Shown in pieces: positions 1,029-27,654 of a stretch of DNA of 32,000 nucleotides. The DNA comes from Microcystis aeruginosa NIES-843 (lineage in GTDB: Bacteria; Cyanobacteriota; Cyanobacteriia; Cyanobacteriales; Microcystaceae), in assembly GCF_000010625.1 (NCBI RefSeq), contig NC_010296.1:450001-482000 (forward strand). Reading direction: 5' to 3'. Under the pieces are notes generated by a model. That model was not told the DNA's origin and ran no database searches. It worked only from the letters and a program-made list of their open reading frames with translations. A program made the translations under genes and the position numbers. The first letter of the stretch is position 1; the number at the start of each line of letters is the position of its first letter.

Positions 1029-1209
1029 TGGGACTTAGGCGTTTTCGGTCAGCAAAAAAGGCTCAAACCATTACGGGACAAAGGGTTAACCTCGATTTAT
1101 GATTTTCCTTGATATATCTGGGTTTCAGCGATTTTGGGCTTCTCGAAGTAAATCCCAAGCGGGGATTGGAGTTGAAGCTTTTCTCGATTTGTTTTTTGTC
1201 TAAGTCCCA
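1029..1209 (+). mobile_element. MITE-B copy 1 (181 bp; termini TGGGACTTAG.../...CTAAGTCCCA)
   Basis: Flanked by CTAT/CTAT (1025-1028, 1210-1213). Base-for-base identical to 10102-10282. Excision restores the hsdS frame (KCY/VITDE). Confidence 0.9.
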
Positions 1210-2922
1210 CTATGTGATTACTGATGAAGACCATCAAAAGGTTATGCAAAGGAGCAGACCAGAAACAGGAGATATAATTTTTTCAAATATCGGGACATTA
1301 GGTTCAACGGTTTTGGTAGATAATGAATTCGAGTTTAGTATAAAAAATGTAGCTTTATTTAAACCTTTTGACAAAAACTATTCTAGTTTTATATTTTTAT
1401 ATTTTTCCGATCCTGCTACTTTAAGAAAAATGGAAATTCAGTCTTCTGGAACATCACAAAAGTTTTTTAGTTTGAAATTTTTAAGAGGCTTGCATATACT
1501 TACTCCTAATAAAACTCTTCTTAGATTATTTAATGATGTAGTCGAGCCAGCGTTAAAACAACGCTCTCTATTGCATAAATACAATCAAAAACTAAAACAA
1601 GCGCGTGACATACTACTTCCGAAACTTATGAATGGAGAGATCGAGGTGTAGAGGCGAAAGAGCGATCGCACCTGTAAAAATCCCTGAAAATTGGCAATAT
1701 TAATAAAATAAACCACTCCCCTGCACAATCGACCCTATGACCACCGAGGATAAAGTACAACAACTCACCGCCAACTGTCTGCGAGATCAACTTGGTTGGC
1801 AGAGTGTCTATGCTTATAATCAAGAGGATTACGGTGAAAACAGCCTGCTCGGACGGCAAAATCAGAAAGAAGTTATCCTCAAACGCTACCTAAAACAGAA
1901 ATTACGAGAATTTAACCCCAATCTTCCCGAAGAAGCCTATAAATCCGCCATTCTCCAAATCGAAGAAATCAACTCTAGTCAAACCCTTCTGGCCACCAAT
2001 CAAGAGAAACATCAACTCCTTCTCGATGGAGTACAGGTGAGCTACCGCAACGCCAAAGGAGAGCTAATTAGACAAACCCTAAAAATCCTTGATTTCGACC
2101 AACCCAGCAATAACCATTTTCTAGCGGTTCGAGAACTGTGGATACAGGGGGAAATCTACCTCCGTCGCACGGATTTGGTAGGTTTTGTTAACGGCATTCC
2201 CCTACTCTTCCTAGAAGCGAAAAACCTCAACCGGGACCTAAAAGCGGCCTACGACGAGAATTTATCGGACTATCTTGATACCATCCCCCATCTATTCGCC
2301 TATAACGCCTTTGCGATTTTAGTTAATGGCATAGACGCGAAAATAGGTAGTTTCTGCGGCAAATACGAACACTTTCACCCATGGAAACGCTTGGCCGAGA
2401 GTGACCCCGGCATTGTCGATATGGAAACCATGCTAAAAGGAGTCTGCGATAAAAATAACTTTATCGATCTGTTAGAAAATTATGTCCTTTTCGATAACTC
2501 CACTGGCAAAACCTGCAAGATTATCGCCCGAAATCACCAGTTTCTAGGGGTTAACCAAGCGATCGATTCTGTGAAAAGATGGCGGGAGGGTGCGATAAAA
2601 GATAACAAACTAGGGGTTTTCTGGCATACCCAAGGCTCCGGAAAAAGCTACTCTATGGTTTTTTTCACCCGCAAAATTCGCCGTAAACTAGGCGCAAACT
2701 ATACCTTCGTTATCTGTACCGATCGCGAAGATCTAGATAAACAAATCTACTATACCTTTGCCGGTTCCGGATTGACCAATAACGAGCAAGAACTCTGCCA
2801 AGCTTCCAGTAACGAACACTTACAGAGTCTTCTGGGAGACCATAAAGCCTATATTTTCACCCTCATCCAGAAATTCAACCAAACCGTCAATCCCGACCAA
2901 CCCTACAACTCCCGAAACGATA

Positions 2923-3009
2923 AGCTAAACGGCGCTTAACCTGCATGATCCAACAGCTATAACCCTTTTGGAGTCTATATCGGTGATCCGAAGTAAAAGC
3001 CGTTTAGCT
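2923..3009 (+). mobile_element. MITE-C copy 1 (87 bp; termini AGCTAAACGGC.../...GCCGTTTAGCT; TA duplication)
   Basis: TA at 2921-2922 and 3010-3011. Identical in reverse complement to 31383-31469. Lies one nucleotide from the IS701-family left end. Confidence 0.85.
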
Positions 3010-3012
3010 TAT

Positions 3013-4375
3013 TGGGACTTAAACGCCAAATAAAGATCAAATCGAGTATAATCGTTAAAGAGTAAGCACTTTACGTTGAAAGATCAGCGATGAAAGAGAC
3101 AACCCCAGCCGCGATGCCCCCATGCTTTGACCGATGGTGTCGGCGGTTTGACAATTGCTTCAAAAACGAAGCGCAAAAAAACGGCTTCAGACAATATTTA
3201 GGAGGATTATTAGGGGAAAGTGAGCGGAAAAACCTCACTCAAATGGCCAATAATGCCGTCGGAGTAGTTTATAACCGATTACATCACTTTTTGACCGAAT
3301 CTCCCTGGTCAGACCGTCAGGTGAATGAATGTCGGTTGCAAGTGATGAACCAATGCCGCCAGACGCAAATCCCCCGAGGATTTTCCCTGATTGTCGATGA
3401 CTCAGGACATCGAAAAAGTGGCAATCTGACCGCCGGAGTTGGCAGGCAGTACCTAGGAGAAATTGGCAAGACAGACAACGGAATAGTCGCCGTCACTACC
3501 CATCTCTACGACGGCAAAAAAAGTGTCCCCCTAGACATTGAAATTTATCAACCGGCTAGTTCCTTAGCCGAGGGGAAAGAAGACAAAGAATTTAAGAAGA
3601 AACCGGAGATAGCGATAGATTTAATTGACCGGAGCTTAACCAGAGGCTATCGACCGAAAATCGTCTTAATAGATGCTGGTTATGGCAACAACACAAATTT
3701 TCTCAAAGCCCTGGAAGAAAGAAAGCTAAAATACTTAGGAGGATTGGCAAAAAATCGAAAAGTAATTATTGAAAAAGAAGGGGGTGTGGAAGAAACAATC
3801 CAGCTTGAGCAACTAGCAAAAAGCCTATCAGAAAAGGATTGGGAGAAAATCACCCTAAATCTAGATAAAGAAAAAACGGTTTGGGTAGCGGTATTCAGAG
3901 CGAAAATATCTCAACTAGAAGGAGAAAGGAACTTGGCGATCGTCATGAATGCAAGTTCAATGGAAAAAGCCACAGAGGTGGACTATTTCATCACCAATGT
4001 AGTTGAGGCAGATACAGTAACAGCGTCGTGGATAGTCAAGACTTACACCGAAAGAAATTGGGTGGAAGTATTCTACCGAGAAGCCAAAGGATGGTTAGGG
4101 TTAAGGGAATACCAAGTCAGGGATAAACGAAGCTTACTTCGTCATTTTATCCTGGTGTTTTGTGCCTATACATTTATCCTGTGGCATAAGTTAACTGGGG
4201 GATTGCAAAGGCAGTGGGCGAATCGACCTTTAAACACTTTTGTGGAAGCCTTGGAAGCTTTTCGGACAGCGATGTCTTTCCGTTTCTTTGAGTGGCTGAC
4301 CGAGAATCGGGATGTGTTTGCCGCTTACAAAGCCAGTTTAGGCTTTGTTTGGGCTTGAAATTTGTTTAAGTCCCA
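3013..4375 (+). mobile_element. IS701-family insertion sequence (1363 bp)
   Basis: Termini TGGGACTTAAAC.../...GTTTAAGTCCCA. Single transposase ORF. Flanks ATAT/TTAT (4 bp, one mismatch). The hsdR frame is restored across it. Confidence 0.8.
3090..4358 (+). CDS. IS701-family DDE transposase (IS4 superfamily)
   Basis: 422 aa. Motifs [18 protein letters not shown] and [17 protein letters not shown] (Y-R-E-K signature). The N-terminus resembles IS701/ISRso17-type transposases. Confidence 0.8.
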
Positions 4376-4586: not shown

Positions 4587-6181
4587 GGGACTTCCAGAGA
4601 ATAAAATACCCAACAAAAAAATAGAAAAGTGTTTTTTTGAAAAAGTAATTATTTTTGTCTAGGAAAACAAAGAGTCTCCCATTACAACCTATTTTTCCGA
4701 AAAAATAGGCAGCACAAACTCTTATACTTCCGAGCTTTTTCGAGTATAACAAGGACAAGTTAAAGAATCAAAGACAGTTTTTAGCTAACCATCTTAGTTA
4801 ACTACAAACTAGGTCTTATCATAATAGATATCAATAAACCATTGTCCCAAATCGGGAAAGTCTTGATTCGTTGATTCTGTGAGACGTTCGATTTTTTCTT
4901 CGATTTTTTCCATGGCTTTTTTAGTAAGCTTTACTCCTTTTTCATAAGTTTCAGTAATCAACTTAACAATCGGGTGTTTTCCTTTCCAAGTCATAGTTTG
5001 GGCGAATTTCAAAGCCGTTTCGATTTCATCTAAAATACTCCCATTCCAAGGGTTTTCTAACACAGCCCAGGTTCGTTCAATAGGATTATATTTACTATGG
5101 TAAGGGGGATAGTAAGCTAAACGTATATTAACTTGATATTTTTGGGAAAACTCAACTATACGTTTCATGAACTGAGTTCGTCTCGAATTATTTTCTGGTC
5201 CATTATCTTGATTAATTATCAAAGTTTTAATTTTCTCAAAACGAGATTTTTCCGACTCCCAGAAATCTTCTAATATATCAACAATAAAGTCACTGGTGAC
5301 TGTGGAGGCAGTGAAATACAAAAACAACTCATCAAATTCTGGAATAAATATTCCGTAAGGGGTTAGGGTTGTTTTCGGATTAAAATCATGATCGTTTGTT
5401 TCGACAGTTATTCTATTCTTACCTCCTCGATCAAATAGTCCAATATTAACACGGGCTTTGGCATCCAAACTAAGACGTAACATCGTAGGGTCTTCATCCG
5501 CTTCCCGATTAATGTTAGCTAATTCCTCAAAGATTGCCTCGGTTTCTGGAATTTTTTTTGAGGTAAAACTTTAGCGACTCTTTTCAGACGATAACCTAAG
5601 TTATTTAATTTAACCCGAATAGTTTCCTCGCTCGGTAAATCCTCATCACTGTACCCATATTTAGAGATTAATTGCTTTCGGACTTCGGCCGCACTCAGTC
5701 TCACATAAAGCCTTTGGCTTTTAAAACTTGGGTCAGTTTGGCTTTGAGAATCCACTAAACTTTTGATGTTTTCCAATAGAAAAGGTAAATGTTCTTCTGC
5801 TTTTTTCCGCCCCTTAGCTGAATGATTATCAACACAAATAATACCTCTTTTTAGTTCTTTAATTCCTTTACGAATAGTAGTTCGATTCCAGCCTAACTCC
5901 TGTGCAGCAAGGGTTTGTCCCCCATAGCCTAATTCTAAGACTGTTTGGGCCATGAATCTTCTTTTAGCTGCACCTTTTAATTGAAGTGCAGTTTCACTGA
6001 GCAATTTCTTGAGGGAATCAGTTAATTCCATATACACTTACAAAGAAAAACTTGATTAATAATGTACAGGATTAATTCTACTACAAAATTGGAAGGAGGA
6101 GGCAACCATCGACCCCTACCTCCTACACTCCGAGAATGATTATTATTCTTGAGCATGAATAGTTTATTTTTTGGAAGTCCC
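4587..6181 (-). mobile_element. ISAzo13-like insertion sequence (~1.6 kb)
   Basis: Termini GGGACTTCCAGAGAATAAA / reverse complement GGGACTTCCAAAAAATAAA. CTA (minimally TA) duplicated at 4584-4586 and 6182-6184. hsdR reads ATVPL/YYDARG across it. Confidence 0.75.
4809..6037 (-). CDS. ISAzo13-like DDE transposase, two frames joined by a -1 shift at an A8 run
   Basis: ORF 5519-6037 is the HTH-containing N-terminus. ORF 4809-5483 is the DDE part (INQDNGPE, YYPPYHSKYNPIERTW). The downstream frame stays open upstream through the run of eight T at 5552-5559 (A8 on the coding strand), reading ...KKIPETEAIFEELANINREADEDPTMLRLSLDAK. Confidence 0.7.
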
Positions 6182-6284: not shown

Positions 6285-7422
6285 TACTTTGCACGGCTAC
6301 AACTTGCATTTTTTACTCAAGGACAATAATATAGTTTAAGAGTCATAATTAGAAGCAAAGCACTCATTAAAAACATGATTAACCTAGAATTCACGGAAGA
6401 AGAAAAGAACTCACTGTATTATGAAAGATTTCATCATCCCCATCCCCGGGTTCAACTGAAGATGGAAGTTCTCTGGTTAAAAAGCCAAAAGATACCGCAC
6501 CAAAAAATTTGTCAGTTAGCAGGAATCTCGCCAAATACCTTATTAACCTATCTTCGAGATTATCAAGAGGGCGGAATAGAAAAATTAAAAGAAATCAACT
6601 TCTATCGCCCTAAAAGTGAATTAGAGTCTCAAAGAGAAACGCTCAAAAAATATTTCGAGAAAAATCCACCAGCCACAATAAATGAAGCTGTATATAGAAG
6701 AGAAGAATTGACAGGAATAAAACGAAGTCCTACCCAAGTGAGAAAATTCTTAAAATCCTTGGGAATGAAATGTTTAAAAGTAGGTTCTCTTCCTTCTAAA
6801 GCTGACCCAGATGAACAAGAAGAATACAAAGAAAAAAAGCTAGAACCCAGACTAAATGAGGCTAAAGAAGGAAAAAGGGCTGTTTTTTTTGTTGATGCCG
6901 CTCACTTCGTCATGGGAGCATTTCTCGGTTTTGTTTGGTGTTTTGAGAGACTTTTTGTTAAGTCACCGAGCGGGCGTAAACGCTTCAATGTTTTAGGAGC
7001 ATTAAATGCAATAACTCATGAAGTTATTCTGGTTACGAATGACACTTATATTACAGCAACTCAAGTCTGTGAACTCCGGTCAAAAATAGCTGCTTTAGGA
7101 CTAATGATTCCCATCACTCTCGTATTAGATAATGCCCGCTATCAGAAATGTAAAATTGTTGAAGAATTGGCTCTTTATTTGTCAATAGAGCTACTCTATC
7201 TACCGTCTTATTCGCCTAATCTAAATTTAATTGAAAGGCTGTGGAAATTGGTCAAAAAGAAATGTTTATATGGTAAATATTATGAGAACTTTTCTGACTT
7301 TTCTTCAGCTATTTATGAATGTCTGAATGATGCCCATCTGAAACATAAAAAAGAACTGGATTCCTTGCTGACTCTACGATTTCAGAAGTTTAATAAATCT
7401 CAGATTATGAACGTCTAAAGTA
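6285..7422 (+). mobile_element. IS630-family insertion sequence (1138 bp)
   Basis: Imperfect termini TACTTTGCACG.../...CGTCTAAAGTA. TA duplication at 6283-6284 and 7423-7424. hsdR reads ENVEI/EDRLE across it. Confidence 0.85.
6375..7418 (+). CDS. IS630-family DDE transposase
   Basis: 347 aa. N-terminal HTH (ICQLAGISPNTLLTYL). DDE motifs FFVDAAHF, LVLDNARYQK and LPSYSPNLNLIERLWKLVK. Confidence 0.9.
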   Translation: MINLEFTEEEKNSLYYERFHHPHPRVQLKMEVLWLKSQKIPHQKICQLAGISPNTLLTYLRDYQEGGIEKLKEINFYRPKSELESQRETLKKYFEKNPPATINEAVYRREELTGIKRSPTQVRKFLKSLGMKCLKVGSLPSKADPDEQEEYKEKKLEPRLNEAKEGKRAVFFVDAAHFVMGAFLGFVWCFERLFVKSPSGRKRFNVLGALNAITHEVILVTNDTYITATQVCELRSKIAALGLMIPITLVLDNARYQKCKIVEELALYLSIELLYLPSYSPNLNLIERLWKLVKKKCLYGKYYENFSDFSSAIYECLNDAHLKHKKELDSLLTLRFQKFNKSQIMNV

Positions 7423-7606
7423 TAGAAGACCGTTTAGAAAGGGAATTAAGAAGGGATTACTACATCCTGACGGCCCCGCAGCGGTTGGATGCGCTGGCCC
7501 GTGATTTCGTTGAACATTACAGCACCGCTTGGGAAACAGGCAAAGCCATGGTGATTTGTATCGACAAGCTCACCTGTGTCAAGCTGCATAACCTGATCGA
7601 TCGTTA

Positions 7607-9593
7607 CCCGCATTTCTCACAAACTGAATTAAGAACCTAATTTGGAGGTTAAAAGTTGGTGTTTTTCAAAAATAAGAGAAACCCGCTTAGTTATCAAGGA
7701 ATAATCTGACTAAACTAATCAAAAAATTCCTGAATTACTGGAAAAATTCCGTCAATTAGGGAAAATGTTCACGACAAAGTTAGCTGAATTTATAAGCAGC
7801 CATTTTTAAGACTATTTAATGATCTTTGAAAACTCTTCAACTTATCCAGTTCCCGCTATCGCTTGAATTCTAGAGTAAGCTATCGCTAAAATATCTTGAT
7901 AGGGACAAGAACTGGCAATTGCGATTAAAATTCTTCTGACACTAACAGTAATTCTAGCTCCTAATTTAAGGAAATTAAGGCGAATTGTTCCCACTGTCGC
8001 TTTGGCAAAAGAAGTTTTAGCCAAACAATTTTGACGAAAAGCTTGCATTAAAACATAAGCCATTGATGACAACCAAAGTCTTAATTGATTACTCTCAAAT
8101 GTCTGTGTCGAATTCCGGTCAGCAAATAAGTCTAATTGTTGCTCTTTAATTCGATTTGACCTCTCACCTCTGGGGCAATATTTTTCAGTGTAAAGTTTAG
8201 ATGGGGGAATCTTTGATGCAGGTAAAGAAGTCACAACGTGGCGAATTTTTACGCCCTCACTACCAGGACAAACTTTTGTCACCACTCTTCTTGAACGGCT
8301 CCAGGATTTTTGGGTTTGATAACATAGGGAACGATACCAAGTCGATTCTGGTACCAATTTCGCCAATTCTCCTAACTCTTCATCGGGAGAAAATAACGTC
8401 TCCATTAATTCAGTAACTGGCTGAAGTCTTTGCTCGTAATCTGCCTTAGCTTTCTCAATTACATCGGTCGCTCGTAATTTTAATTGACTATTCGTTGCCA
8501 TTGCTAAAACATAATCAACTCCTGCTTGACTTTCGCAAAATTTCATGATATCTTCACGGGAATAGGCACTATCTCCTCGTACTAATATCTGCGTATCTGA
8601 CCATTTTTCTCGAATTATACCGATTATTCGCTGCAATTCTTCTAATGCTCCCCCAGCAGTATCTACATGAGAAGACCGGAGTTTAGCTACTAATAAATGA
8701 TGCTCACAGAAAATATACAAAGGAGCATAACACACTCCTTTATAATAAGTATTGAAAAACGCTCCCTCTTGATTTCCATGCACTTGGTCATCGGTGACAT
8801 CCATGTCTAAAATAATTGGTTTCGGTGGCTTTTTGTAGGATTCTAGAAAGATGTCCACAAAAGCTTTTTCAATTTCTTTGGGGTTAGGCTCGATTTTATG
8901 GTAACGACTGTTCTCTTGATTGATGACTGTTTCCGGACAATATTCTAGTCGATTAATTGTACTTTTTCCCGCTAAATTTGCTTGGGCTGAGTCAATAAAA
9001 TTTAGTTTTTTCAATGCTATTGCTAAAGCTGGAGCATGACGTAATTTATCATGATCATTGACATCCTCATATCCCAAAACTATCCCATAAACTCTTTGTG
9101 CGAGTAGTTCATGAACTGAATAATCTAGATAGGATGAATTTCGATAATCTCGAAAACATTCGGCAAACCGAGCCGTTATTTTTAGCTTTTGGTCTAACTC
9201 TGCCATCAAAATAATTCCTGCATCTGAGGTGATTTTTCCTCCCTCAAAATTAGCGATTACTTGTCTTCCATTGAGGTTTCCAAAATTTAATTGATTGAGT
9301 CGAGACTGGTCTGAACTAGGAGTCATAAACTTGACATACTTTAAATAGTTTTAATGATTAAATTATAGCAAGCTTTTGACTTCATTCTCTACTTAAAATT
9401 GAGACTTTATCAACTAATTAACCTAAAAATACGCATTTTAAATTTGTTCTTTTTTCAAGGTCTAATTGATGATGAGCTTAAGTTGAATCCTAACAACACA
9501 CTGTCGTTTTTGCTACAAGGCGATCACCCAGTCAAAACCCAGATTTTGTAAGGCTTCGGGGGTTGGTGATCGTACTTTTTGTGAGAAATGCGG
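7607..9593 (-). mobile_element. IS1380-family insertion sequence (~2.0 kb)
   Basis: Perfect 17-nt terminal inverted repeat CCCGCATTTCTCACAAA (7607-7623; reverse complement at 9577-9593). Left flank is hsdR. Right flank is 8 nt upstream of a Uma2 start codon. Confidence 0.85.
7842..9326 (-). CDS. IS1380-family transposase
   Basis: 494 aa. The N-terminal FEGGKITSDAGIILMAELD...LLAQRVYGIVLGYEDVNDHDKLRHAP block is characteristic of IS1380-type DDE transposases. Confidence 0.85.
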   Translation of the reverse strand: MTPSSDQSRLNQLNFGNLNGRQVIANFEGGKITSDAGIILMAELDQKLKITARFAECFRDYRNSSYLDYSVHELLAQRVYGIVLGYEDVNDHDKLRHAPALAIALKKLNFIDSAQANLAGKSTINRLEYCPETVINQENSRYHKIEPNPKEIEKAFVDIFLESYKKPPKPIILDMDVTDDQVHGNQEGAFFNTYYKGVCYAPLYIFCEHHLLVAKLRSSHVDTAGGALEELQRIIGIIREKWSDTQILVRGDSAYSREDIMKFCESQAGVDYVLAMATNSQLKLRATDVIEKAKADYEQRLQPVTELMETLFSPDEELGELAKLVPESTWYRSLCYQTQKSWSRSRRVVTKVCPGSEGVKIRHVVTSLPASKIPPSKLYTEKYCPRGERSNRIKEQQLDLFADRNSTQTFESNQLRLWLSSMAYVLMQAFRQNCLAKTSFAKATVGTIRLNFLKLGARITVSVRRILIAIASSCPYQDILAIAYSRIQAIAGTG

Positions 9594-10101
9594 GTTAAGC
9601 AATGGTTAGACAACTCGACGACAGCCCGAAAACCACAATCGTCTATCCCGATAGCGATGGTAAACCGATGGCCGATAATACAAGACAATTTCGCTGGATT
9701 ACGACGATTAAAGCGAATTTAGACTGGTTATTTGCCAATGATGCCGATGTTTTTGTCGCTGGCGATTTACTCTGGTATCCCGTGGAGGGAGATAATAAGA
9801 CTCGGCAAGCGCCTGATGTCATGGTAGCTTTCGGCAGACCGAAAGGGGAAAGAGGTTCCTATCAACAGTGGAAAGAGAACAATATCCCCCCACAGGTGGT
9901 TTTTGAAATTCTCTCTCCGGGTAATACTCAAACGGAAATGACCAGAAAACTACTGTTTTATGACCGTTATGGTGTGGAAGAATACTACATTTATAACCCA
10001 CATTCCGCACCCTAAGTGTCACAACGTCTCAAAAGAGGAAGGGGCGTGAGTCAAAATACTTATCTAGAGGAGTGAGTTGGCGGCAAGCTGCCAGCAACTA
10101 A

Positions 10102-10282
10102 TGGGACTTAGGCGTTTTCGGTCAGCAAAAAAGGCTCAAACCATTACGGGACAAAGGGTTAACCTCGATTTATGATTTTCCTTGATATATCTGGGTTTCA
10201 GCGATTTTGGGCTTCTCGAAGTAAATCCCAAGCGGGGATTGGAGTTGAAGCTTTTCTCGATTTGTTTTTTGTCTAAGTCCCA
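10102..10282 (+). mobile_element. MITE-B copy 2, nested inside the IS1634-family element
   Basis: Identical to 1029-1209. Flanked by CTAA/CTAA (10098-10101, 10283-10286). Confidence 0.9.
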
Positions 10283-10427
10283 CTAAGCCGAAAATTTCAG
10301 AGTTCCCCCGGTCATTCTCAATAAACAGTGCTTGTTGAGAATGACTAGGCAATCAGACTTAACATCTAGGGGGAGATGTTCCAGTTGCTCGCTTTGTTTT
10401 GTCACCCCTTGAAGTCAATCCATCTGG

Positions 10428-12101
10428 TCAAGATAAGAGATAATATTCCTGGCAAGGTTTGGGGAAAAATCTCAAAATGTTGCGCCTCTCATCCGTTAAG
10501 TTGCTAATCTTTTGATTGTCTTGAATACGGACGAGATGAATCCCTTGAAAGCACTGAAATATCCAGCGTAACGTCGGTCGGTCAGTTAACTTACCCAACG
10601 GATTTTTCAGTCCCGTCTCCTGCTGTTTTAAACTTAAACGAAGTTGTCTTTGACCAATAGTATAAACCAGCAGGCACAAGCCCATGAGCATGGCCATGAC
10701 CTCGATTCTATGGGGAGATTTGAGAAAGACACTGTCAGCAAAAAAGCAGGGGTCTTTGAGAAAAGAAAATCCTCTTTCTGGAGCTTGTTGCCCCTTATAT
10801 TTTTTGAGTATATCCTCACTGCTCAATCGTTTTTTCTCCAAATCGTTAGTTGCTAAAACGAATCGTCCTGCTCGTTTCTTTAGCCTCTCAATGGCGGTCA
10901 AATTCAACTCTAATTTGGCTTGAACTTGATAGCTTTGAGAGGGTAAATCGTCTTTTAATTTGAGTTTTGACCCCTGGGACTCAGGCGGAATGAGATTGAC
11001 TTTAATCTCCGTTAACTGATGAGATTTTAAGGAGTCAGATAATCCTTTGGCTATCGCCAACGCCACCGCTCTATTCTCAAATTCTCTTCGGGATAGTTGC
11101 CGGATTTTTTCTTGGGCAGAATTCTTTTCCTGCTCGATTTTTTTCTCTAATTTTTTCAAGTCTGATTCTTGTCTAGCTTGACTTTCAACTAGCAACCATC
11201 TTTGTTCTATCCCCCCATAGTTAGAGCTTGTTTCCCGCCAGGAATAACCCGGTATTTCTGAATCGGTTAACTCTTTTTCTGAGATGCTATCGACTAACTC
11301 TTGAGCCTCTTTAATGCTTAATGGTACTCGAGACAACCAACGCATTTCTTTCATTAGTTTTAAATTCTCTTTGCTATAGAGGGCGCTATCGCCGACTATT
11401 AAACTGTCAAAGTCAACTTGTTTTTTAAATTCTCGGGCGATTTGACCAAAAACCGCTTTGTCCGCTTCATTTCCGTCCCCTACTTTCAGGAATAAAGGTA
11501 CATCTCCATCCCCACTTACGATTAAGTCAATCATAAATTGTTTTAAGTCAGGTCGTCGGTCGCGGGAGTATCCGTAGGTAATTTTTATTGGCTGTTGTCT
11601 GGTTTCAATTTCTTCTCCCACTGCTCCTGATTTCAGGATTTCTACTGTTGGGTATTCCTTTTTATATTCTCCTTCTACTGATAGAGAAGTCGAATCTAAA
11701 TGGGAGTTCTCGGTTGCTACACCAAATTTTTTCACGGCGGCTAAACTAATCAGTAGGAAAATGACCGAAACATTAAGTTGATAAAGTTTGTCCATTACTC
11801 GACCAATTTTATCATCATTCAGGTGTTTTGGTTCGATGCCCTCTCCCAGCAGATGTTCGGTTGCTTTATCTTCAAAAAATTGAGGAAATAAATACAAGGC
11901 TCGGGAGACAAATCCCAATCCATTCAGGATAATTGCTTTCACGACTTGCCCCGCTGTGACAATTTCTCCTCGCTCAATTGAGACTTGTTCGTTGATAATT
12001 TCAACGATTCCTATTTCATCGATAATTCCGGCTACTAATCCCAGATGGTCTAGATTTTTGACTTCAATTTCTGTTGATTGATTCATGGTCGAACAGTCCA
12101 C
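10428..12101 (-). CDS. IS1634-family transposase (IS4 superfamily)
   Basis: 557 aa. N-terminal NLDHLGLVAGIIDEIGI (DUF4277-type). HLDSTSLSVEG and LIVGDSALYS DDE blocks. Long coiled-coil insert. Confidence 0.8.
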   Translation of the reverse strand: MDCSTMNQSTEIEVKNLDHLGLVAGIIDEIGIVEIINEQVSIERGEIVTAGQVVKAIILNGLGFVSRALYLFPQFFEDKATEHLLGEGIEPKHLNDDKIGRVMDKLYQLNVSVIFLLISLAAVKKFGVATENSHLDSTSLSVEGEYKKEYPTVEILKSGAVGEEIETRQQPIKITYGYSRDRRPDLKQFMIDLIVSGDGDVPLFLKVGDGNEADKAVFGQIAREFKKQVDFDSLIVGDSALYSKENLKLMKEMRWLSRVPLSIKEAQELVDSISEKELTDSEIPGYSWRETSSNYGGIEQRWLLVESQARQESDLKKLEKKIEQEKNSAQEKIRQLSRREFENRAVALAIAKGLSDSLKSHQLTEIKVNLIPPESQGSKLKLKDDLPSQSYQVQAKLELNLTAIERLKKRAGRFVLATNDLEKKRLSSEDILKKYKGQQAPERGFSFLKDPCFFADSVFLKSPHRIEVMAMLMGLCLLVYTIGQRQLRLSLKQQETGLKNPLGKLTDRPTLRWIFQCFQGIHLVRIQDNQKISNLTDERRNILRFFPKPCQEYYLLS

Positions 12102-12523
12102 TCGCCTCAGTTTTCCAACAATTCCTATTTTTTCATAATTAGGGGTCTCAAGACCCCCCTAGCGGCCACCGAGAAAACCTTCACCAGCTAGGTATTTTTA
12201 CTCAAGTCTCTGGAGGGGGACAGCTTACACCATTTTTCTTTATTCGCGTCACAACGAACACCGGCTTGGCAAGCATTCGAGCGTGGATGTCTGTCATGGA
12301 TTTAGAAATTTGGTATTATGTGACAGTTGAGGGTGCGGAATGTGGGATTTATAATCCCGATAAAAATGATTTGGGCGGCTGTATTCGTCGGGAAAATCGC
12401 CTCGAAAGTCTGGAAAATCTCGATAATTGGATCAGTCCTCGCTTGGGCATTCGTTTTCAATTAGCCCAACCAGAGTTACTCTTGTATTATCCCGATGGTC
12501 AACCTTTCACCAGTTACAACCAA

Positions 12524-12586
12524 GAACGACAACGGGCCGAAGCGGAACGACAACGGGCTGAAACGGAACGACAACGGGCCGAACGA
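12524..12586 (+). repeat. 21-nt coding tandem repeat, 3 units (ERQRAEA-ERQRAET-ERQRAER), Uma2 copy 1 tail
   Basis: GAACGACAACGGGCCGAAGCG-type unit repeated head to tail, in frame. Confidence 0.9.
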
Positions 12587-12643
12587 TTGGCGGCAAAACT
12601 GCGAGAATTAAACATTAATCCCGAGGAGATTTAAAAAAATTAT

Positions 12644-12829
12644 GGTTCTTCGGTTTGTGTTATGCAACGTACAGGGTTATAAGGAATGAAACTCTTATAG
12701 AGAAAGACATTTGGCGATTTTTGTTAATTGTTTTCGATCTAGAGCGAACTAATCAATTAAATCTCTTGCCAGATAAGGATTTAGTCGATTTATGCCCCCC
12801 TATCGAACCATACTAAGTAACGAAGAACC
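12644..12829 (+). mobile_element. MITE-A copy 2 (186 bp)
   Basis: Termini GGTTCTTCGGT.../...ACGAAGAACC. 8-bp duplication AAAATTAT at 12636-12643 and 12830-12837. The equivalent sites after Uma2 copies 2 and 3 are empty (AAAAAAAATTATCG). Confidence 0.9.
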
Positions 12830-13051
12830 AAAATTATCGGTAGAATAAAAGTAGATAAATATCAAGTCCTCTAGCTAGAGTCGCAACAGTAAGCCCAGAA
12901 AAAATGCCCTAGGGCAGGGTTGACTAATTCCCACTCTCCGATACTTTTTAAACAGGATTTAGGATCATCACCGTCCCTAAATATTTGCCCTAGTTTTTTA
13001 TAGTAAAGTTATACTATGAAGGAAGCCAAGACGAAATTCTAGGGTTAAGCA

Positions 13052-13705
13052 ATGGTTAGACAACTCGACGACAGCCCAAAAACCGCAATCGTCTATCCCG
13101 ATAGCGATGGTAAACCGATGGCCGATAATACAAGACAATTTCGCTGGATTACGACGATTAAATCGAATCTAGACTGGTTATTTGCCAATAATGCCGATGT
13201 TTTTGTCGCCGGTGATTTACTCTGGTATCCCGTGGAGGGAGATAATAAGACTCGGCAAGCGCCTGATGTCATGGTAGCTTTCGGCAGACCGAAAGGGGAA
13301 AGAGGTTCCTATCAACAGTGGAAAGAGAACAATATCCCCCCACAGGTGGTTTTTGAAATTCTCTCTCCGGGTAATACTCAAACGGAAATGACCAGAAAAC
13401 TACTGTTTTATGACCGTTATGGTGTGGAAGAATACTACATTTATAATCCCGATAAAAATGATTTGGGCGGCTGTATTCGCCAAGAAAATCGGCTCGAAAG
13501 TCTAGAAAATCTCGATAATTGGATCAGTCCTCGCTTAGGCATTCGTTTTCAATTAGCCCAACCAGAGTTACTCTTGTATTATCCCGATGGTCAACCTTTC
13601 ACCAGTTACAACCAAGAACGACAACGGGCCGAAGTGGAACGACAACGGGCCGAACGATTGGCGGCAAAACTGCGAGAATTAAACATTAATCCCGAAGAAA
13701 TTTAA
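13052..13705 (+). CDS. Uma2-family (DUF820) endonuclease, tandem copy 2
   Basis: 217 aa. Has the family pattern YPDSDGKPMADNT, QAPDVMV and VVFEILSPGN (PD...E-x-S/K nuclease-type core). C-terminal ERQRAE repeats followed by RLAAKLRELNINPEEI. Confidence 0.85.
   Translation: MVRQLDDSPKTAIVYPDSDGKPMADNTRQFRWITTIKSNLDWLFANNADVFVAGDLLWYPVEGDNKTRQAPDVMVAFGRPKGERGSYQQWKENNIPPQVVFEILSPGNTQTEMTRKLLFYDRYGVEEYYIYNPDKNDLGGCIRQENRLESLENLDNWISPRLGIRFQLAQPELLLYYPDGQPFTSYNQERQRAEVERQRAERLAAKLRELNINPEEI
13616..13657 (+). repeat. 21-nt coding tandem repeat, 2 units, Uma2 copy 2 tail
   Basis: ERQRAEV-ERQRAER. Confidence 0.9.
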
Positions 13706-13957
13706 AAAAAATTATCGATTGATGGAGTCGATCGAGATAGTCTCGCTACAATAAAAGTAAATAAACATCAAGTCCTCTAGCTAGAGTCGCAACAGTAAGC
13801 CCAGAAAAAATGCCCTAGGGCAGGGTTGACTAATTCCCACTCTCCGATACTTTTTAAACAGGATTTAGGATCATCACCGTCCCTAAATATTTGCCCTAGT
13901 TTTTTATAGTAAAGTTATACTATGAAGGAAGCCAAGACGAAATTCTAGGGTTAAGCA

Positions 13958-14695
13958 ATGGTTAGACAACTCGACGACAGCCCGAAAACCACAATCGTCT
14001 ATCCCGATAGCGATGGTAAACCGATGGCCGATAATACAAGACAATTTCGCTGGATTACGACGATTAAATCGAATCTAGACTGGTTATTTGCCAATAATGC
14101 CGATGTTTTTGTCGCCGGTGATTTACTCTGGTATCCCGTGGAGGGAGATAATAAGACTCGGCAAGCGCCTGATGTGATGGTAGCTTTCGGCAGACCGAAA
14201 GGGGAAAGAGGTTCCTATCAACAGTGGAAAGAGAACAATATCCCCCCACAGGTGGTTTTTGAAATTCTCTCTCCGGGCAATACCCCAACGGAAATGACCA
14301 GAAAACTGCTGTTTTATGACCGTTATGGTGTGGAAGAATACTACATTTATAATCCCGATAAAAATGATTTGGGCGGCTGTATTCGTCGGGAAAATCGGCT
14401 CGAAAGTCTGGAAAATCTCGATAATTGGGTCAGTCCTCGCTTAGGTATCCGTTTTCAATTAGCCCAACCAGAGTTACTCTTGTATTATCCCGATGGTCAA
14501 CCTTTCACCAGTTACAACCAAGAACGACAACGGGCCGAAGCGGAACGACAACGGGCCGAAACGGAAAGTCAACGGGCCGAAGCGGAACGACAACGGGCCG
14601 AAACGGAAAGTCAACGGGCCGAAGCGGAACGACAACGGGCCGAACGATTGGCGGCAAAACTGCGGGAGTTAAATATTAATCCCGAAGAAACTTAA
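13958..14695 (+). CDS. Uma2-family (DUF820) endonuclease, tandem copy 3
   Basis: 245 aa. Only a few substitutions relative to copy 2, but a longer repeat tail. Confidence 0.85.
   Translation: MVRQLDDSPKTTIVYPDSDGKPMADNTRQFRWITTIKSNLDWLFANNADVFVAGDLLWYPVEGDNKTRQAPDVMVAFGRPKGERGSYQQWKENNIPPQVVFEILSPGNTPTEMTRKLLFYDRYGVEEYYIYNPDKNDLGGCIRRENRLESLENLDNWVSPRLGIRFQLAQPELLLYYPDGQPFTSYNQERQRAEAERQRAETESQRAEAERQRAETESQRAEAERQRAERLAAKLRELNINPEET
14522..14647 (+). repeat. 21-nt coding tandem repeat, 6 units, Uma2 copy 3 tail
   Basis: ERQRAEA-ERQRAET-ESQRAEA-ERQRAET-ESQRAEA-ERQRAER. Confidence 0.9.
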
Positions 14696-14983
14696 AAAAA
14701 ATTATTGATCTACTCAATCGATCGAGATAGTCTCGCTACAATAAAAGTAGATAAATATCAAGTCCTCTAGCTAGAGTCGGAACAGTAAGCCCAGAAAAAA
14801 TGCGCTAGGGCAGGGTTGACTAAATCGACGAAGCAATCGCTAAATAGGGGTAATTTCCGTCCACTTCTCCCCAATCCTGAACGGGAGAGGCAGAACCGAA
14901 GAATTTCTATAAAATTTCGGTAAGGGTGGAAAGATCAAGTAAGTTAGCGTTAGGGCTTAATCTTCGCCACGGAAAGTAGAACT

Positions 14984-16123
14984 ATGACAGTTTGTGAATA
15001 TCGGCCAGGTTTAGAAGGAATTCCCGCCGCCCAATCGAGTATCAGCTTTGTGGATGGGCAAAAGGGAATCTTAGAGTATCGGGGCATTCGGATTGAGGAA
15101 CTCGCCGAAAAAAGTACCTTCCTCGAAACCGCCTATCTCCTTATCTGGGGTGTTCTGCCCACGGGGGCGGAACTGGACGAATTTGCCGATGAAATCCGTT
15201 ATCATCGACGCATCAAGTACCGTATCGAAGACATGATGAAATGCTTCCCCGAAAAAGGCCATCCCATGGATGCGCTACAAACTTCGGCGGCGGCTTTAGG
15301 GTTATACTATGCCCGTCGGGCTTTGGATAATCCCGAATATATCCGTCAGGCAGTGGTGCGGTTATTAGCGAAAATCCCCACCATGGTGGCGGCGTTTCAA
15401 TTAATTCGCAAAGGTAATCATCCCATTCAGCCCAACGATAGTCTTGATTATGCGGCCAATTTCCTCTATATGTTGACGGAAAGACGACCAACGGATTTAG
15501 CGGCGAAAGTTTTCGATGTCTGTTTGACCCTCCACGCCGAACATACCATGAATGCCTCGACTTTTTCGGCCATGGTGACGGCTTCCACTTTAACCGACCC
15601 CTACGGTGTCATCGCTTCAGCAGTGGGAACTCTCGCCGGCCCCCTCCACGGTGGGGCAAACGAGGAAGTATTGTTAATGTTAGAGGAAATCGGTTCGGTG
15701 GCTAATGTTCGTCCCTATGTGGAAAAATGTATCGCCAATAAACAAAAAGTTATGGGTTTTGGACACCGGGTATATAAAGTTAAGGATCCCCGGGCGACGA
15801 TTTTACAAAACCTTGCCGAACAATTATTCGCGGAATTAGGTTCCGATGAATACTACGATATCGCCCTAGAATTAGAACAAGCAGTGGTGGATATCTACGG
15901 CGAAAAAGGTATCTATGCTAATGTGGATTTCTATTCGGGATTGGTCTATCGGAAATTAGGCATCCCCAGTGATTTATTTACCCCGATTTTTGCCATCTCC
16001 CGGGTGGCCGGTTGGTTGGCCCACTGGAAAGAACAATTAAATGCTAACCGCATTTTCCGTCCTACCCAAATATACACTGGAGAACACGAAGTCCCCTATA
16101 CACCGATCGAACAACGTTCTTAG
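14984..16123 (+). CDS. gltA: Citrate synthase
   Basis: 379 aa. GLEGIPAAQSSISFVDGQKGILEYRGIRIEEL, HAEHTMNASTF and GPLHGGANE...GFGHRVYK citrate synthase signatures. Confidence 0.95.
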   Translation: MTVCEYRPGLEGIPAAQSSISFVDGQKGILEYRGIRIEELAEKSTFLETAYLLIWGVLPTGAELDEFADEIRYHRRIKYRIEDMMKCFPEKGHPMDALQTSAAALGLYYARRALDNPEYIRQAVVRLLAKIPTMVAAFQLIRKGNHPIQPNDSLDYAANFLYMLTERRPTDLAAKVFDVCLTLHAEHTMNASTFSAMVTASTLTDPYGVIASAVGTLAGPLHGGANEEVLLMLEEIGSVANVRPYVEKCIANKQKVMGFGHRVYKVKDPRATILQNLAEQLFAELGSDEYYDIALELEQAVVDIYGEKGIYANVDFYSGLVYRKLGIPSDLFTPIFAISRVAGWLAHWKEQLNANRIFRPTQIYTGEHEVPYTPIEQRS

Positions 16124-16156
16124 ATTTTATCTCCCATTCTTGATGGAAACACGGTT

Positions 16157-16193
16157 TCTCGCCTTTGTCAATCTTTCCTAGGCGAGATTTTTT
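16157..16193 (+). terminator. Possible rho-independent terminator of gltA
   Basis: TCTCGCC (16157-16163) pairs with GGCGAGA (16181-16187), followed by TTTTTT. The 17-nt loop is long. Confidence 0.45.
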
Positions 16194-16321
16194 GTCTCAT
16201 TTCCTGTTATATTGATGGGGCAAGGAAACAGTCCAGCGGCTTTCAGCTTGGTCAGTTTCGGTGTATATAGCAAGGCAAGGTCTCTACTTCTAGATAGTCG
16301 GACAGAAAAATATTAAAGATT

Positions 16322-19398: not shown

Positions 19399-19464
19399 TA
19401 TCGAAAACAATTGACAAAAATCGCCCTTTATAACCCGTCCATGGCCTAACACAAACCGAAGAAC
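19399..19464 (-). mobile_element. MITE-A remnant (internally deleted, one terminus retained)
   Basis: The reverse complement matches the MITE-A 5' end (GGTTCTTCGGTTTGTGTTA...) and the internal GGCGATTTTTGTCAATTGTTTTCGAT block. Confidence 0.6.
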
Positions 19465-19594: not shown

Positions 19595-19939
19595 TCATGC
19601 GTATAGTAACTGATTATTAATACTATCAACAGTTAAGGTGTTGACTAAAACACTAACCCGTTGCACGACCTCGTAGGCAGTTTTCTGAGGGACAACAATA
19701 ATCCCACAATGTTCTCTGCCTTCCTCTATGAATTGAAGATGCAATCGTTCAAAATCAACTCGGTTGTGGGTGACAAGACATCTACCTAAAGAAGCGGCAA
19801 ATTCTAATTGTTCGCTGTCAGTTTTGCCCAAAGTTGACTGCTCAGGAACAGTGGTGACATCTAAACCACGAGAACGCAGAAGTGTTGCAACTAACGCCGA
19901 CATATCTTCGTCCATGTAAAGCGAAGCAAATATGCTCAT
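19595..19939 (-). CDS. DUF5615-family PIN-like putative toxin
   Basis: 114 aa. LYMDEDMS...LLRSRGLDV...THNRVDF pattern. 4-nt overlap with the upstream DUF433 gene. Confidence 0.7.
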   Translation of the reverse strand: MSIFASLYMDEDMSALVATLLRSRGLDVTTVPEQSTLGKTDSEQLEFAASLGRCLVTHNRVDFERLHLQFIEEGREHCGIIVVPQKTAYEVVQRVSVLVNTLTVDSINNQLLYA

Positions 19940-20229
19940 AGCTTACCCAAAGCTGCCTTTACAGAAGGATGCACCAACTCATCGGGGACTTGGTTACGTT
20001 CAATGTACTCGTTAATTTCTGCTTGATGATCCAAATAAAAACTCAAGGCATCGAACACTTGTGCTAAGGTCAAATGAGGTAAATGAGTTGGAATTTCCTC
20101 TGGCATCACACCTAATCGCCACAGACCTACGATTGCGCGAATAGATGTGCGAGTGCCTTCAATAATTGGCTCTCCACCTAAAATCTCATTGTTTCTGGTG
20201 ACATAACGTGAAAGAGTGATAATCGTCAT
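19936..20229 (-). CDS. DUF433-family putative antitoxin
   Basis: 97 aa. ILGGEPIIEGTRTSIRAIVGLW...PHLTLAQVFDALSFY is the DUF433 signature. Commonly paired with DUF5615. Confidence 0.75.
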   Translation of the reverse strand: MTIITLSRYVTRNNEILGGEPIIEGTRTSIRAIVGLWRLGVMPEEIPTHLPHLTLAQVFDALSFYLDHQAEINEYIERNQVPDELVHPSVKAALGKL

Positions 20230-20451: not shown

Positions 20452-20513
20452 ACACAAACCGAAGAACCATAAAGATTAGATTGAACATTTCTGGGATTTC
20501 TCTCCAACGGCAA
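20452..20513 (+). repeat. 62-nt direct repeat, copy b (right of the TA cassette)
   Basis: See 19449-19510. Confidence 0.85.
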
Positions 20514-21055: not shown

Positions 21056-22243
21056 ATGTTTGTTTTAGAGTACAAGCTTAGAGGAAAACCATCTCAATAT
21101 CAAGCCATTGATGAGGCTATTCGGACAGTACAGTTTGTTCGGAATAAATGTCTTAGATATTGGGAAGACAATAAAGGTGTAGGACAAAAGGATGTATATA
21201 AATATGTCACTCAATTAAGAAGTGAATACCCTTTTGTTCAAGACCTTAACTCTACAGCTTGTCAACAGGCTTGCGAACGTACTTGGACTGCTATTCTTAG
21301 GTTCTATAATAACTGTAAGAACAAAATTGCTGGTAAGAAAGGATATCCTAAATACTCTAAACGTACTCATTCTGTTGAGTTTAAAAAGTCAGGTTGGAAA
21401 CTTAATCGAAATTCCAAGAGAATAACTTTCACTGATGGAAAAAACATTGGGGAGTTAAAACTAATTGGTAGTCGAGACTTGTTTGATTTTCAAGAATGGC
21501 AAATTCAACGGATAAGAATAGTTAAAAGGGCTGATGGATATTATTGCCAGTTAATGCTAAAACTCGATGCTAGAGATATAACCCCACAATTAGAATCGAC
21601 GGGTCATTGCCTAGGATTAGATATGGGGTTAAAATATCTTTATGCTGACAGTAACGGGAATACAGTAGAGCCTCCTAAGTATTATCGAAAAGCCGAGAAA
21701 CGTCTTCATAAACTGAATAGAAGAAAGTCGAAAAAGTTTAAGAGAGGACAAAAGCAGTCTAATAACTACAAAAAAGCTAGTCAAAAATACGCCAAGGGAC
21801 ATTTAAAAGTAAGTAGGCAACGAGAAGAGTTTGCTAAAAAATTGGCACTCCGTTTAATTCAGTCAAACGACTTGATAGCCTACGAGGATTTAAAAGTCAA
21901 GAACCTTGTGCGTAATCGAAAACTAGCTAAGAGTATCAATGATGCTGGTTGGTCACAATTGAGAAAATGGATAGAGTATTTTGGCATTAAATACGGCCGA
22001 TTAACCATAGCAGTTAATCCAGCCTATACAAGTCAAGAATGCTTTAATTGTGGTCGGTTAATCCAAAAGTCTCTATCAGTTAGAACTCATGTTTGTTCCT
22101 GCGGATATGTGGAAGATAGAGACAAAATGGCGGCCTTGAATATACTCAAAAAAGCTACGATAGGGCATATCGGAAGCTGGTCGTTAGACCTAAACGCTTG
22201 GGGAGATTTAAGCTCTATTTTGGTTGGTAGAAATACCTGCTAA
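21056..22243 (+). CDS. tnpB: TnpB RNA-guided endonuclease (IS605 OrfB family)
   Basis: 395 aa. RuvC-I LGLDMG, RuvC-II IAYEDLKVKN, zinc finger CFNCG...CSCG, RuvC-III DRDKMAALNI. All three catalytic positions look intact. Confidence 0.9.
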   Translation: MFVLEYKLRGKPSQYQAIDEAIRTVQFVRNKCLRYWEDNKGVGQKDVYKYVTQLRSEYPFVQDLNSTACQQACERTWTAILRFYNNCKNKIAGKKGYPKYSKRTHSVEFKKSGWKLNRNSKRITFTDGKNIGELKLIGSRDLFDFQEWQIQRIRIVKRADGYYCQLMLKLDARDITPQLESTGHCLGLDMGLKYLYADSNGNTVEPPKYYRKAEKRLHKLNRRKSKKFKRGQKQSNNYKKASQKYAKGHLKVSRQREEFAKKLALRLIQSNDLIAYEDLKVKNLVRNRKLAKSINDAGWSQLRKWIEYFGIKYGRLTIAVNPAYTSQECFNCGRLIQKSLSVRTHVCSCGYVEDRDKMAALNILKKATIGHIGSWSLDLNAWGDLSSILVGRNTC

Positions 22244-27505: not shown

Positions 27506-27607
27506 GCCTCGGTCGTCGGTCGTCAGGAAAATTAAGAATGAATAATAATCAATTATGCGGTATTAAGTAAGTAGTGTTAAATGGCATTAACAGTGCTATC
27601 TTTTCCC

Positions 27608-27654
27608 TGATTACTGATTACTGATTACTGATTACTGATTACTGATTACTGATA
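27608..27654. repeat. Heptamer tandem repeat (TGATTAC) x 6.7
   Basis: Perfect copies from 27608 to 27649 plus a partial unit. Overlaps the cofG stop codon (27646-27648). Confidence 0.95.

Follow-up and report, generated by a model that had tools for sequence, protein, structure and literature searches.

Does a nuclease-like gene that stands in three tandem copies beside a dead restriction-modification (R-M) system mark a locus that is still being amplified, for defence or for its own sake, or an old duplication in the course of decay? The question is raised by a 32,000-nt stretch of Microcystis aeruginosa NIES-843 (contig NC_010296.1, positions 450,001 to 482,000; hereafter the window, numbered from its first nucleotide), in which three Uma2 (DUF820) genes follow one another head to tail on the + strand, with starts at 9602, 13052, and 13958. 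An earlier note on this DNA had proposed ongoing amplification and turnover typical of defence or selfish loci. The analysis presented here indicates that the locus is probably a birth-and-death tandem array of one chromosomal Uma2/COG4636 gene; the duplication is old and selectively maintained, and is now eroded by insertion sequence (IS) elements and a miniature inverted-repeat transposable element (MITE). Uma2 is among the largest uncharacterised nuclease families of cyanobacteria, and any functional handle on it would be useful. The locus provides natural material to this end, namely two intact, near-isogenic copies with different tails, one freshly inactivated copy, and single-copy orthologues in sister strains.

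Layout and age of the tandem array

Only two of the three copies are intact: copy 2 (13052-13705, 217 aa, with two heptad units in its C-terminal tail) and copy 3 (13958-14695, 245 aa, with six units), both on the + strand and both matching Pfam family PF05685 (E = 9.4e-17 and 3.9e-16, respectively). Their starts were confirmed as previously given and are 906 bp apart. The earlier description of three near-identical genes with a period of about 906 bp holds for the number of copies and for this pair; copy 1 is split, and its start lies 3,450 bp, rather than 906 bp, before that of copy 2 because of the insertion of an IS1634-family element and a MITE. The 5′ part of copy 1 (9602-9996, +), comprising codons 1-131 and the first two bases of codon 132, includes the left target duplication of the IS1634 element (9989-9996), while the 3′ part (12355-12634, +) carries three heptad units. 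The open reading frame (ORF) of copy 1 ends at 10015, and joining 9602-9996 to 12355-12634 restores an uninterrupted ORF of 224 aa, so IS1634 is the sole coding-sequence lesion of what is now a pseudogene. Across a core of 561 nt, the copies differ from one another at 13-15 positions, or 97.3-97.7% identity.

The origin of the array is recorded in the 252-nt spacer between copies 2 and 3 (13706-13957, +). Its first 128 nt (13706-13833) are the Uma2 gene’s own 3′ flank, which recurs after copy 3 (14696-14822, +), is partly preserved ahead of copy 2 (12844-12927, +), and follows the single-copy orthologue in all Microcystis contigs that were examined. The remaining 124 nt (13834-13957) are a conserved upstream segment that also precedes copy 2 (12928-13051, +), contains a -10-like TATACT hexamer, and is kept before the single-copy orthologues of contigs L006, L012, L014, and L015, where the DNA further upstream is unrelated. 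As the spacer is composed of the 3′ flank and the upstream segment, the array stems from one join of the two, and the duplication junction lies at 13833/13834, where GGGTTGACTAA meets TTCCCACTCTCC; this junction is also present in contigs L001, L002, and L092. Homology to the repeat unit stops with the flank segment that follows copy 3, and unique sequence then continues up to gltA (14984-16123, +; PF00285), which encodes citrate synthase and is the conserved downstream neighbor of the Uma2 orthologue in Microcystis.

Copy number at this position varies among Microcystis assemblies. A single orthologue is located directly upstream of gltA in L006, L013, L014, and L015, and a single but relocated one is found in L012 and L016; linkage of Uma2 to gltA is seen in L001, L002, L005-L010, L013-L015, and L093. 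The same duplication junction occurs in three other assemblies: L092 (VYLR01000126.1), with two tandem Uma2 copies; L002, in which the upstream copy has been cut by another inserted repeat; and AP019314.1. The last of these, which we take to be M. viridis NIES-102, matches window positions 10282-16270 at 99.8% and has identical copy 2 and copy 3 proteins, the same spacer, MITE, 3′ part of copy 1, and gltA; further upstream, its sequence is rearranged and lacks the 5′ half of copy 1. The presence of a 75-90-nt 3′-flank segment on both sides of the gene in L002 raised the possibility that this segment was an ancestral direct repeat around a single gene. This was rejected, as L006, L014, and L015 have no upstream copy and that of L002 is cut by the inserted repeat; what L002 retains is more likely left over from the same duplication.

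The divergence of the copies indicates their age. Over the 561-nt core, synonymous divergence (dS) among the paralogues is 0.08-0.10 and the ratio of nonsynonymous to synonymous divergence (dN/dS) is 0.09-0.11, and Uma2 orthologues from different strains give a dS of 0.11-0.26 with a dN/dS of 0.00-0.17. Between the same genomes, the dS of gltA is 0.04-0.10, falling to 0.008 between the window and AP019314.1. Since paralogue dS is comparable to that of gltA between lineages, the duplication is about as old as the diversification of the Microcystis lineages. Ongoing amplification does not agree with copies that have diverged as far as the gltA genes of different lineages, with a dN/dS of about 0.1, or with the visible direction of change, which is loss, copy 1 having been struck twice. 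The variable sites form a mosaic (copy 3, for example, shares blocks with the L002 and L016 alleles), and the array may alternatively have been assembled from diverged alleles; either way, each copy has been under purifying selection.

The earlier note had also drawn attention to a conserved spacer of about 250 bp with a 12-nt palindrome. Both features are real. The units share 98% identity in the spacer, as they do in the coding sequence, and the conservation of the spacer is therefore attributable to shared ancestry and not to any special constraint. There are in fact two 12-nt palindromes, CTCTAGCTAGAG and TGCCCTAGGGCA, and both are part of the 3′ flank. The latter is found at 12905 and 13811, with a one-mismatch form at 14801, relative to an expectation of 0.02 in shuffled sequence, and its likeness to a terminator is confined to the minus strand, which carries no gene there that it could terminate. 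The fold of a 265-nt spacer RNA was unremarkable (z = -0.83), no Rfam family reached its gathering score anywhere in the window, and promoter and terminator scans gave counts no higher than those of shuffles. The 124-nt segment is nonetheless presumed to hold a promoter, on the basis of its conservation and its TATACT hexamer.

Insertions and the restriction-modification remnant

The part of the earlier proposal that concerned turnover by mobile elements was upheld, as three insertions were delimited in or at the edge of the array. The first is the 2,350-bp IS1634-family element inside copy 1 (9997-12346, -), with a transposase gene at 10428-12101 (NF033559; 404.8 bits against a cut-off of 100). 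It is bounded by perfect 17-bp inverted repeats, CCCACATTCCGCACCCT, and by an 8-bp target duplication, ATTTATAA, at 9989-9996 and 12347-12354, and copies 2 and 3, like all orthologues, show the empty site. The second is an IS1380-family element (7606-9595, -; transposase at 7842-9326; NF033539, 407.8 bits against a cut-off of 180) with perfect 18-bp inverted repeats at 7606-7623 and 9578-9595. On the right it stops 6 nt short of the start codon of copy 1, and the conserved upstream segment of that copy is gone; the element has no target duplication, which indicates that the upstream segment and the rest of the adjacent hsdR gene were deleted.

The third insertion is a 186-nt MITE-like element in the spacer between copies 1 and 2 (12644-12829, strand not assigned), recognized by its 9-bp terminal inverted repeats (GGTTCTTCG/CGAAGAACC), its target duplication (AAAATTAT), and an empty site in L092. 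A second, 87% identical copy is located at 496-683 of the window, and further copies occur in L001 (4100-4286) and L012 (10178-10364). Shorter fragments of the same family were noted at 19400-19464 and 20452-20469. In addition, the 124-nt upstream segment of L092 carries a different insertion of about 210 nt (reverse strand, approximately 4190-3975), which has CCCTAAA-like repeats on either side and is probably a further MITE.

A dead Type I R-M system does lie upstream of the array, as had been noted. It comprises a C-terminal hsdS fragment (1109-1651) and the N-terminal 400 aa of hsdR (1737-2939), cut by IS701, so that the remnant as a whole occupies 1109-2939 (+) and matches Pfam Methylase_S, HSDR_N, and SWI2_SNF2; a further hsdS fragment is found at 51-509. 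PADLOC matched REase_I and Specificity_I models here, while the TIGR00348 match fell below its cut-off because hsdR is truncated. Proceeding toward the array, the order is hsdS fragments, truncated hsdR, IS701 (3090-4358), a broken ISAzo13 (4809-6037), IS630 (6375-7418), a 175-nt internal hsdR fragment abutting the left end of IS1380 (7431-7605, +), and IS1380 itself. The 175-nt fragment was assigned to hsdR through the resemblance of its frame-2 translation (…RLDALARDFVEHYSTAWETGKAMVICIDK…), not through a family search, and is thus a putative piece of that gene. Between 2939 and 9595, four or five different insertion sequences are stacked within one hsdR gene. The MITE copy at 496-683 lies between the two hsdS fragments and probably split hsdS. 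The array had been described as lying between the R-M remnant and IS elements; the remnant is indeed upstream, but on the other side gltA follows directly, with no flanking IS elements.

How this neighborhood arose can be seen in L015, where hsdS, hsdR, Uma2, and gltA follow one another undisturbed and 143 nt separate the end of hsdR from Uma2. The hsdR gene of that contig (2644-5858) reads as two overlapping ORFs of 760 and 318 aa, which may be a real frameshift or an assembly error. The idea that the adjacency was created solely by an IS1380 rearrangement in the window was rejected, since hsdR lies directly upstream of an uninterrupted orthologue in L015. The same orthologue is found behind a P-type ATPase gene in L014 and behind a DHH-family gene in L012 and L016, and hsdS-hsdR precede Uma2 only in the window and L015. 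The R-M adjacency is therefore ancestral in the L015 lineage, with no general linkage to Uma2, and the Uma2 gene is an edge marker of a variable island and not part of the R-M system. In a wider survey, at 80 loci from many genera, every ORF of 70 aa or more that lay up to 3.5 kb from the gene was clustered. No recurring partner gene was found at these loci, where the only recurrent items were Uma2 itself, spurious antisense ORFs, and a second Uma2 type, and the conserved adjacent antitoxin gene expected of a type II toxin-antitoxin system was absent from them. Diverged tandem pairs of Uma2 genes were observed in L034, L035, L043, L046, L062, and L066.

A history consistent with these observations can be proposed. 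The ancestral state is one copy between the variable island and gltA, with the 124-nt upstream segment and the 128-nt 3′ flank, as in the single-copy strains. A single illegitimate event linking this flank to the upstream segment, at a junction that is still visible, would have produced the 906-bp unit, each unit carrying its own presumed promoter. A third copy would have been added by unequal homologous exchange. All three ORFs evolved under purifying selection, and recombination or conversion would have given the mosaic alleles. The array is now visibly decaying: IS1380 cost copy 1 its upstream segment and the neighboring hsdR its 3′ part, the ORF of copy 1 was split by IS1634, the MITE entered the spacer between copies 1 and 2, and a sister genome lost the 5′ half of copy 1.

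The Uma2 protein and its heptad tail

The family assignment proposed earlier holds, and the catalytic-type residues are kept in all copies. The intact proteins score 61.5 and 59.5 bits against the Pfam Uma2 model (gathering score 27; residues 40-163), while no NCBIfam model matched the Uma2 copies. The motifs QAPDVMV and FEILSPGN occur in all three copies, and P71-D72, E102-I-L, and K116 are invariant among 45 homologues, with D72 lying within APDVMV and E102 within FEILSP; D72, E102, and K116 are found in all three copies. In an AlphaFold2 model of copy 3, D72 is predicted to begin the strand 72-77, E102 to lie on the strand 99-103, and K116 on the helix 110-122. This placement fits the “PD-EXX-K” variant defined for COG4636, in which the Asp follows a Pro at the start of a strand, the Glu is in the next core strand, and the Lys has moved to the following helix (PMC551604). 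Foldseek matched the model, with a probability of 1.00 and E-values of 2.6e-06 to 9.2e-05, to entries 9y1l, 6okh, 3ot2, and 1wdj, and the best structural matches (these four and 3ijm) are all Uma2/DUF820 structural-genomics entries, none of which has an assigned function; no solved Uma2/DUF820 structure was left without a match to the model. A profile of the 45 homologues likewise matched 9y1l (1.5e-07) and 6okh (4.1e-07).

The protein is most likely a metal-dependent PD-(D/E)XK phosphodiesterase of the “PD-EXX-K” type, acting without a dedicated partner gene, a reading that draws on knowledge of the family. It is like known Uma2/COG4636 proteins in its Pfam match, its fold, which is that of 1wdj, 3ot2, 6okh, and 9y1l, its “PD-EXX-K” arrangement, its cyanobacterial expansion, its occurrence as a solo gene, and its tandem cassettes. 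Most, but not all, members of the family have a conserved N-terminal His (H43 of all3650), and a Thr/Ser subgroup has been described (PMC551604). The present protein lacks a His throughout residues 1-60, an invariant D25-N26-T27-x-Q29 precedes the helix 28-43, and the usual position of the conserved His appears to fall inside the invariant D25-N26-T27. Unlike typical Uma2 proteins, members of this subfamily also extend at the C-terminus into an additional beta-hairpin region and a long, charged helix. The helix is made of ExxQRAE heptads, which vary in number, and terminates in an LRELGI-type motif. Relatives of the cyanobacterial subfamily that are about 60-63% identical were noted in Chloroflexota, Caldilineaceae, Candidatus Contendobacter, and other proteobacterial metagenome-assembled genomes (MAGs; L047, L048, L061, L080, L086, and L090), consistent with horizontal transfer or with binning contamination.

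The heptads of the tail are encoded by an in-frame 21-nt minisatellite, which in copy 3 spans 14522-14644 (+; ERQRAEA/ERQRAET/ESQRAEA) and was reported by TRF as period 21 with 5.9 copies and as period 42 with 100% matches. Its equivalents are at 12524-12583 in copy 1 and 13616-13654 in copy 2 (both +), and the tails, with three, two, and six units in copies 1, 2, and 3, differ by whole 21-nt steps. It is because the tail is such a minisatellite that its length changes, and slippage or unequal exchange would add or remove exact heptads. The rapid change in tail length that had been remarked upon is real, with two to seven units in ten Microcystis alleles, but it characterizes the subfamily as a whole and is not peculiar to this locus: among the 45 homologues, from many cyanobacterial orders and with a core identity of 63-77%, the number of units ranges from about one to eight. 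In the AlphaFold2 model, residues 186-237 form one continuous helix (pLDDT mostly 77-93), and its i/i+3 and i/i+4 Glu-Arg pairs, together with the lack of an a/d hydrophobic pattern, suggest that it is a single charged helix and not a coiled coil of the canonical kind.

The helix built on heptad minisatellites is the only feature of the locus for which no published description was found in the literature searched. It is tempting to regard the minisatellite as a device for length variation, and not as neutral slippage, in which a rigid charged helix is changed by exact heptads, although this idea has only an outside chance of being correct. It is similarly doubtful, if worth stating, that the heptads set the distance from the core to the C-terminal LRELGI-type motif while keeping its angular register, making the 2-, 3-, and 6-unit copies functional length variants and not redundant ones. 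Were it true, reach or target spacing could change, much as with changes of repeat number in HsdS. In the HsdS subunits of EcoR124I and EcoR124II, the number of TAEL repeats sets the length of a helical spacer, and the resulting change in the spacer of the recognition sequence is proven. The likeness is that an in-frame short repeat alters the length of an alpha-helix by whole units in a protein of a nuclease system; the differences are that the consequence is proven for HsdS and that the helix predicted here is a single charged one, not a coiled coil.

Alternative explanations and other features of the window

Most aspects of the array have precedents. Feder and Bujnicki, who defined the family in 2005, described its explosive expansion in cyanobacteria, with 95 copies in Gloeobacter, proposed that its members were selfish elements, and reported tandem duplications, including a four-gene array of close relatives in Crocosphaera watsonii (PMC551604). 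Makarova et al. (2009) considered Uma2 a likely solo toxin found mostly as cassettes of paralogous genes (PMC2701414), and Steczkiewicz et al. (2012) is among the sources that treat Uma2/COG4636/DUF820 proteins as putative PD-(D/E)XK nucleases (PMC3424549). A strain-specific uma2 expansion is known from Thermosynechococcus TA-1/CL-1, with 15-17 genes versus four or fewer, counted genome-wide (PMC9403480). As in those strains, uma2 copy number differs here between close relatives and nuclease-like genes form tandem arrays; unlike here, the tandem arrays reported in Thermosynechococcus consist of rpn genes, and uma2 was not counted as one locus. The literature thus already contains tandem cassettes, copy numbers that differ by strain, and the idea of a selfish element or toxin, and the present locus is not a new kind of system. 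The evidence favors ordinary duplication, with purifying selection and decay through IS elements, in a genome notorious for its plasticity.

Two biological alternatives deserve consideration. The array could be an anti-phage defence module, made up of single-gene defence nucleases allied to Type I R-M and diversified in copy number and tail length by an arms race. Polymorphism in both of these traits speaks for such a module, hsdS-hsdR stand directly upstream of the orthologue in L015, and the PADLOC candidate family PDC-S03 matched with E = 1.5e-11, 8.3e-10, and 3e-09 for the three models over approximately residues 47-146, although PDC families are unvalidated candidates with no curated cut-off and the match is limited to the core. 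Further hints concern other Microcystis Uma2 genes: homologues lie within type III CRISPR clusters of Microcystis FACHB-524 (PMC11855584), and one of three variants common to Ma-LMM01-resistant lines of NIES-298 is located 259 bp upstream of a Uma2 gene (bioRxiv 10.64898/2026.07.12.738045). Against it, the same orthologue lies behind unrelated genes in L012, L014, and L016, and the R-M system of the window is dead while copies 2 and 3 remain intact. Strong purifying selection (dN/dS of about 0.1) and a core that is 65-77% identical across cyanobacterial orders are also unlike arms-race proteins, and transcript studies show only nutrient-dependent regulation (PMC13485200); a defence module is accordingly judged unlikely. 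Less probable still is the view that Uma2 genes, as selfish elements or solo toxins, spread for their own sake and that the array is a snapshot of this process. The huge cyanobacterial expansion (more than 7,900 clusters at 90% identity among the matches listed), the published proposals cited above, and the relatives in Chloroflexota and Gammaproteobacteria (Candidatus Contendobacter), which suggest horizontal transfer, are all in keeping with it. Against this stand the fixed position of the orthologue beside gltA in most Microcystis assemblies, a 906-bp unit with neither terminal repeats nor a target duplication, the absence of a recurring mobility gene from the 80 loci, and IS elements that interrupt Uma2 genes and do not carry them; moreover, a search of 2.9 million viral contigs gave 77 pattern matches and no confirmed relative. 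The selection pattern and the fixed position fit a host-retained nuclease, whether defence-like or involved in DNA metabolism, better than they fit a spreading selfish element.

A mis-assembly that expanded one repeat-rich gene into three is a further alternative, and the short-read contigs L003-L011, which start within or just after the Uma2 gene, show that the region is hard to assemble. The copies, however, differ by 13-15 substitutions, by their tail lengths, and by their insertions, the AP019314.1 assembly has the same copy 2 and copy 3 proteins and spacer behind a different upstream region, and the junction is present in two further independent contigs. Given that two assemblies that differ elsewhere agree on the array and that its copies are distinguishable, an artefact is very unlikely. 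Several points do weigh against an old tandem duplication of a retained nuclease gene. Imported alleles that integrated side by side could give a similar divergence of paralogues and orthologues, and the duplication may be commoner than it appears, given that short-read contigs and MAGs can collapse tandem repeats and the counts of one copy are possibly too low. A consensus scan called no + strand promoter in the spacer, which counts against the presumed promoter of the upstream segment. The structural model is of moderate quality (pLDDT 77.5, with residues 1-24 and 57-67 below 50, and TM-scores of 0.3-0.57 to its matches), and the literature searched yielded no report of biochemistry for any Uma2 member and nothing on function for the PDB entries. 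Even so, the birth-and-death array remains the probable explanation of the locus.

Downstream of gltA, the window holds several features that are separate from the array. A DUF5615 (PIN-like) gene is located at 19595-19939 within a minus-strand segment (19595-20229), and a DUF433 gene is predicted just upstream of it by analogy with L001; the two form a typical toxin-antitoxin-like pair that is conserved in L001, L002, and L003. At 21056-22243 there is a TnpB/IS605 OrfB-type gene that matches Cas12f/Cas14c-like models of PADLOC (E = 8.6e-103); its NIES-102 counterpart matches Pfam OrfB_IS605, and no adjacent TnpA was called. Finally, a perfect heptanucleotide tandem repeat, CTGATTA x 6.7, lies at 27607-27653 and overlaps the 3′ end of a radical-SAM ORF (27646-28533, minus strand).

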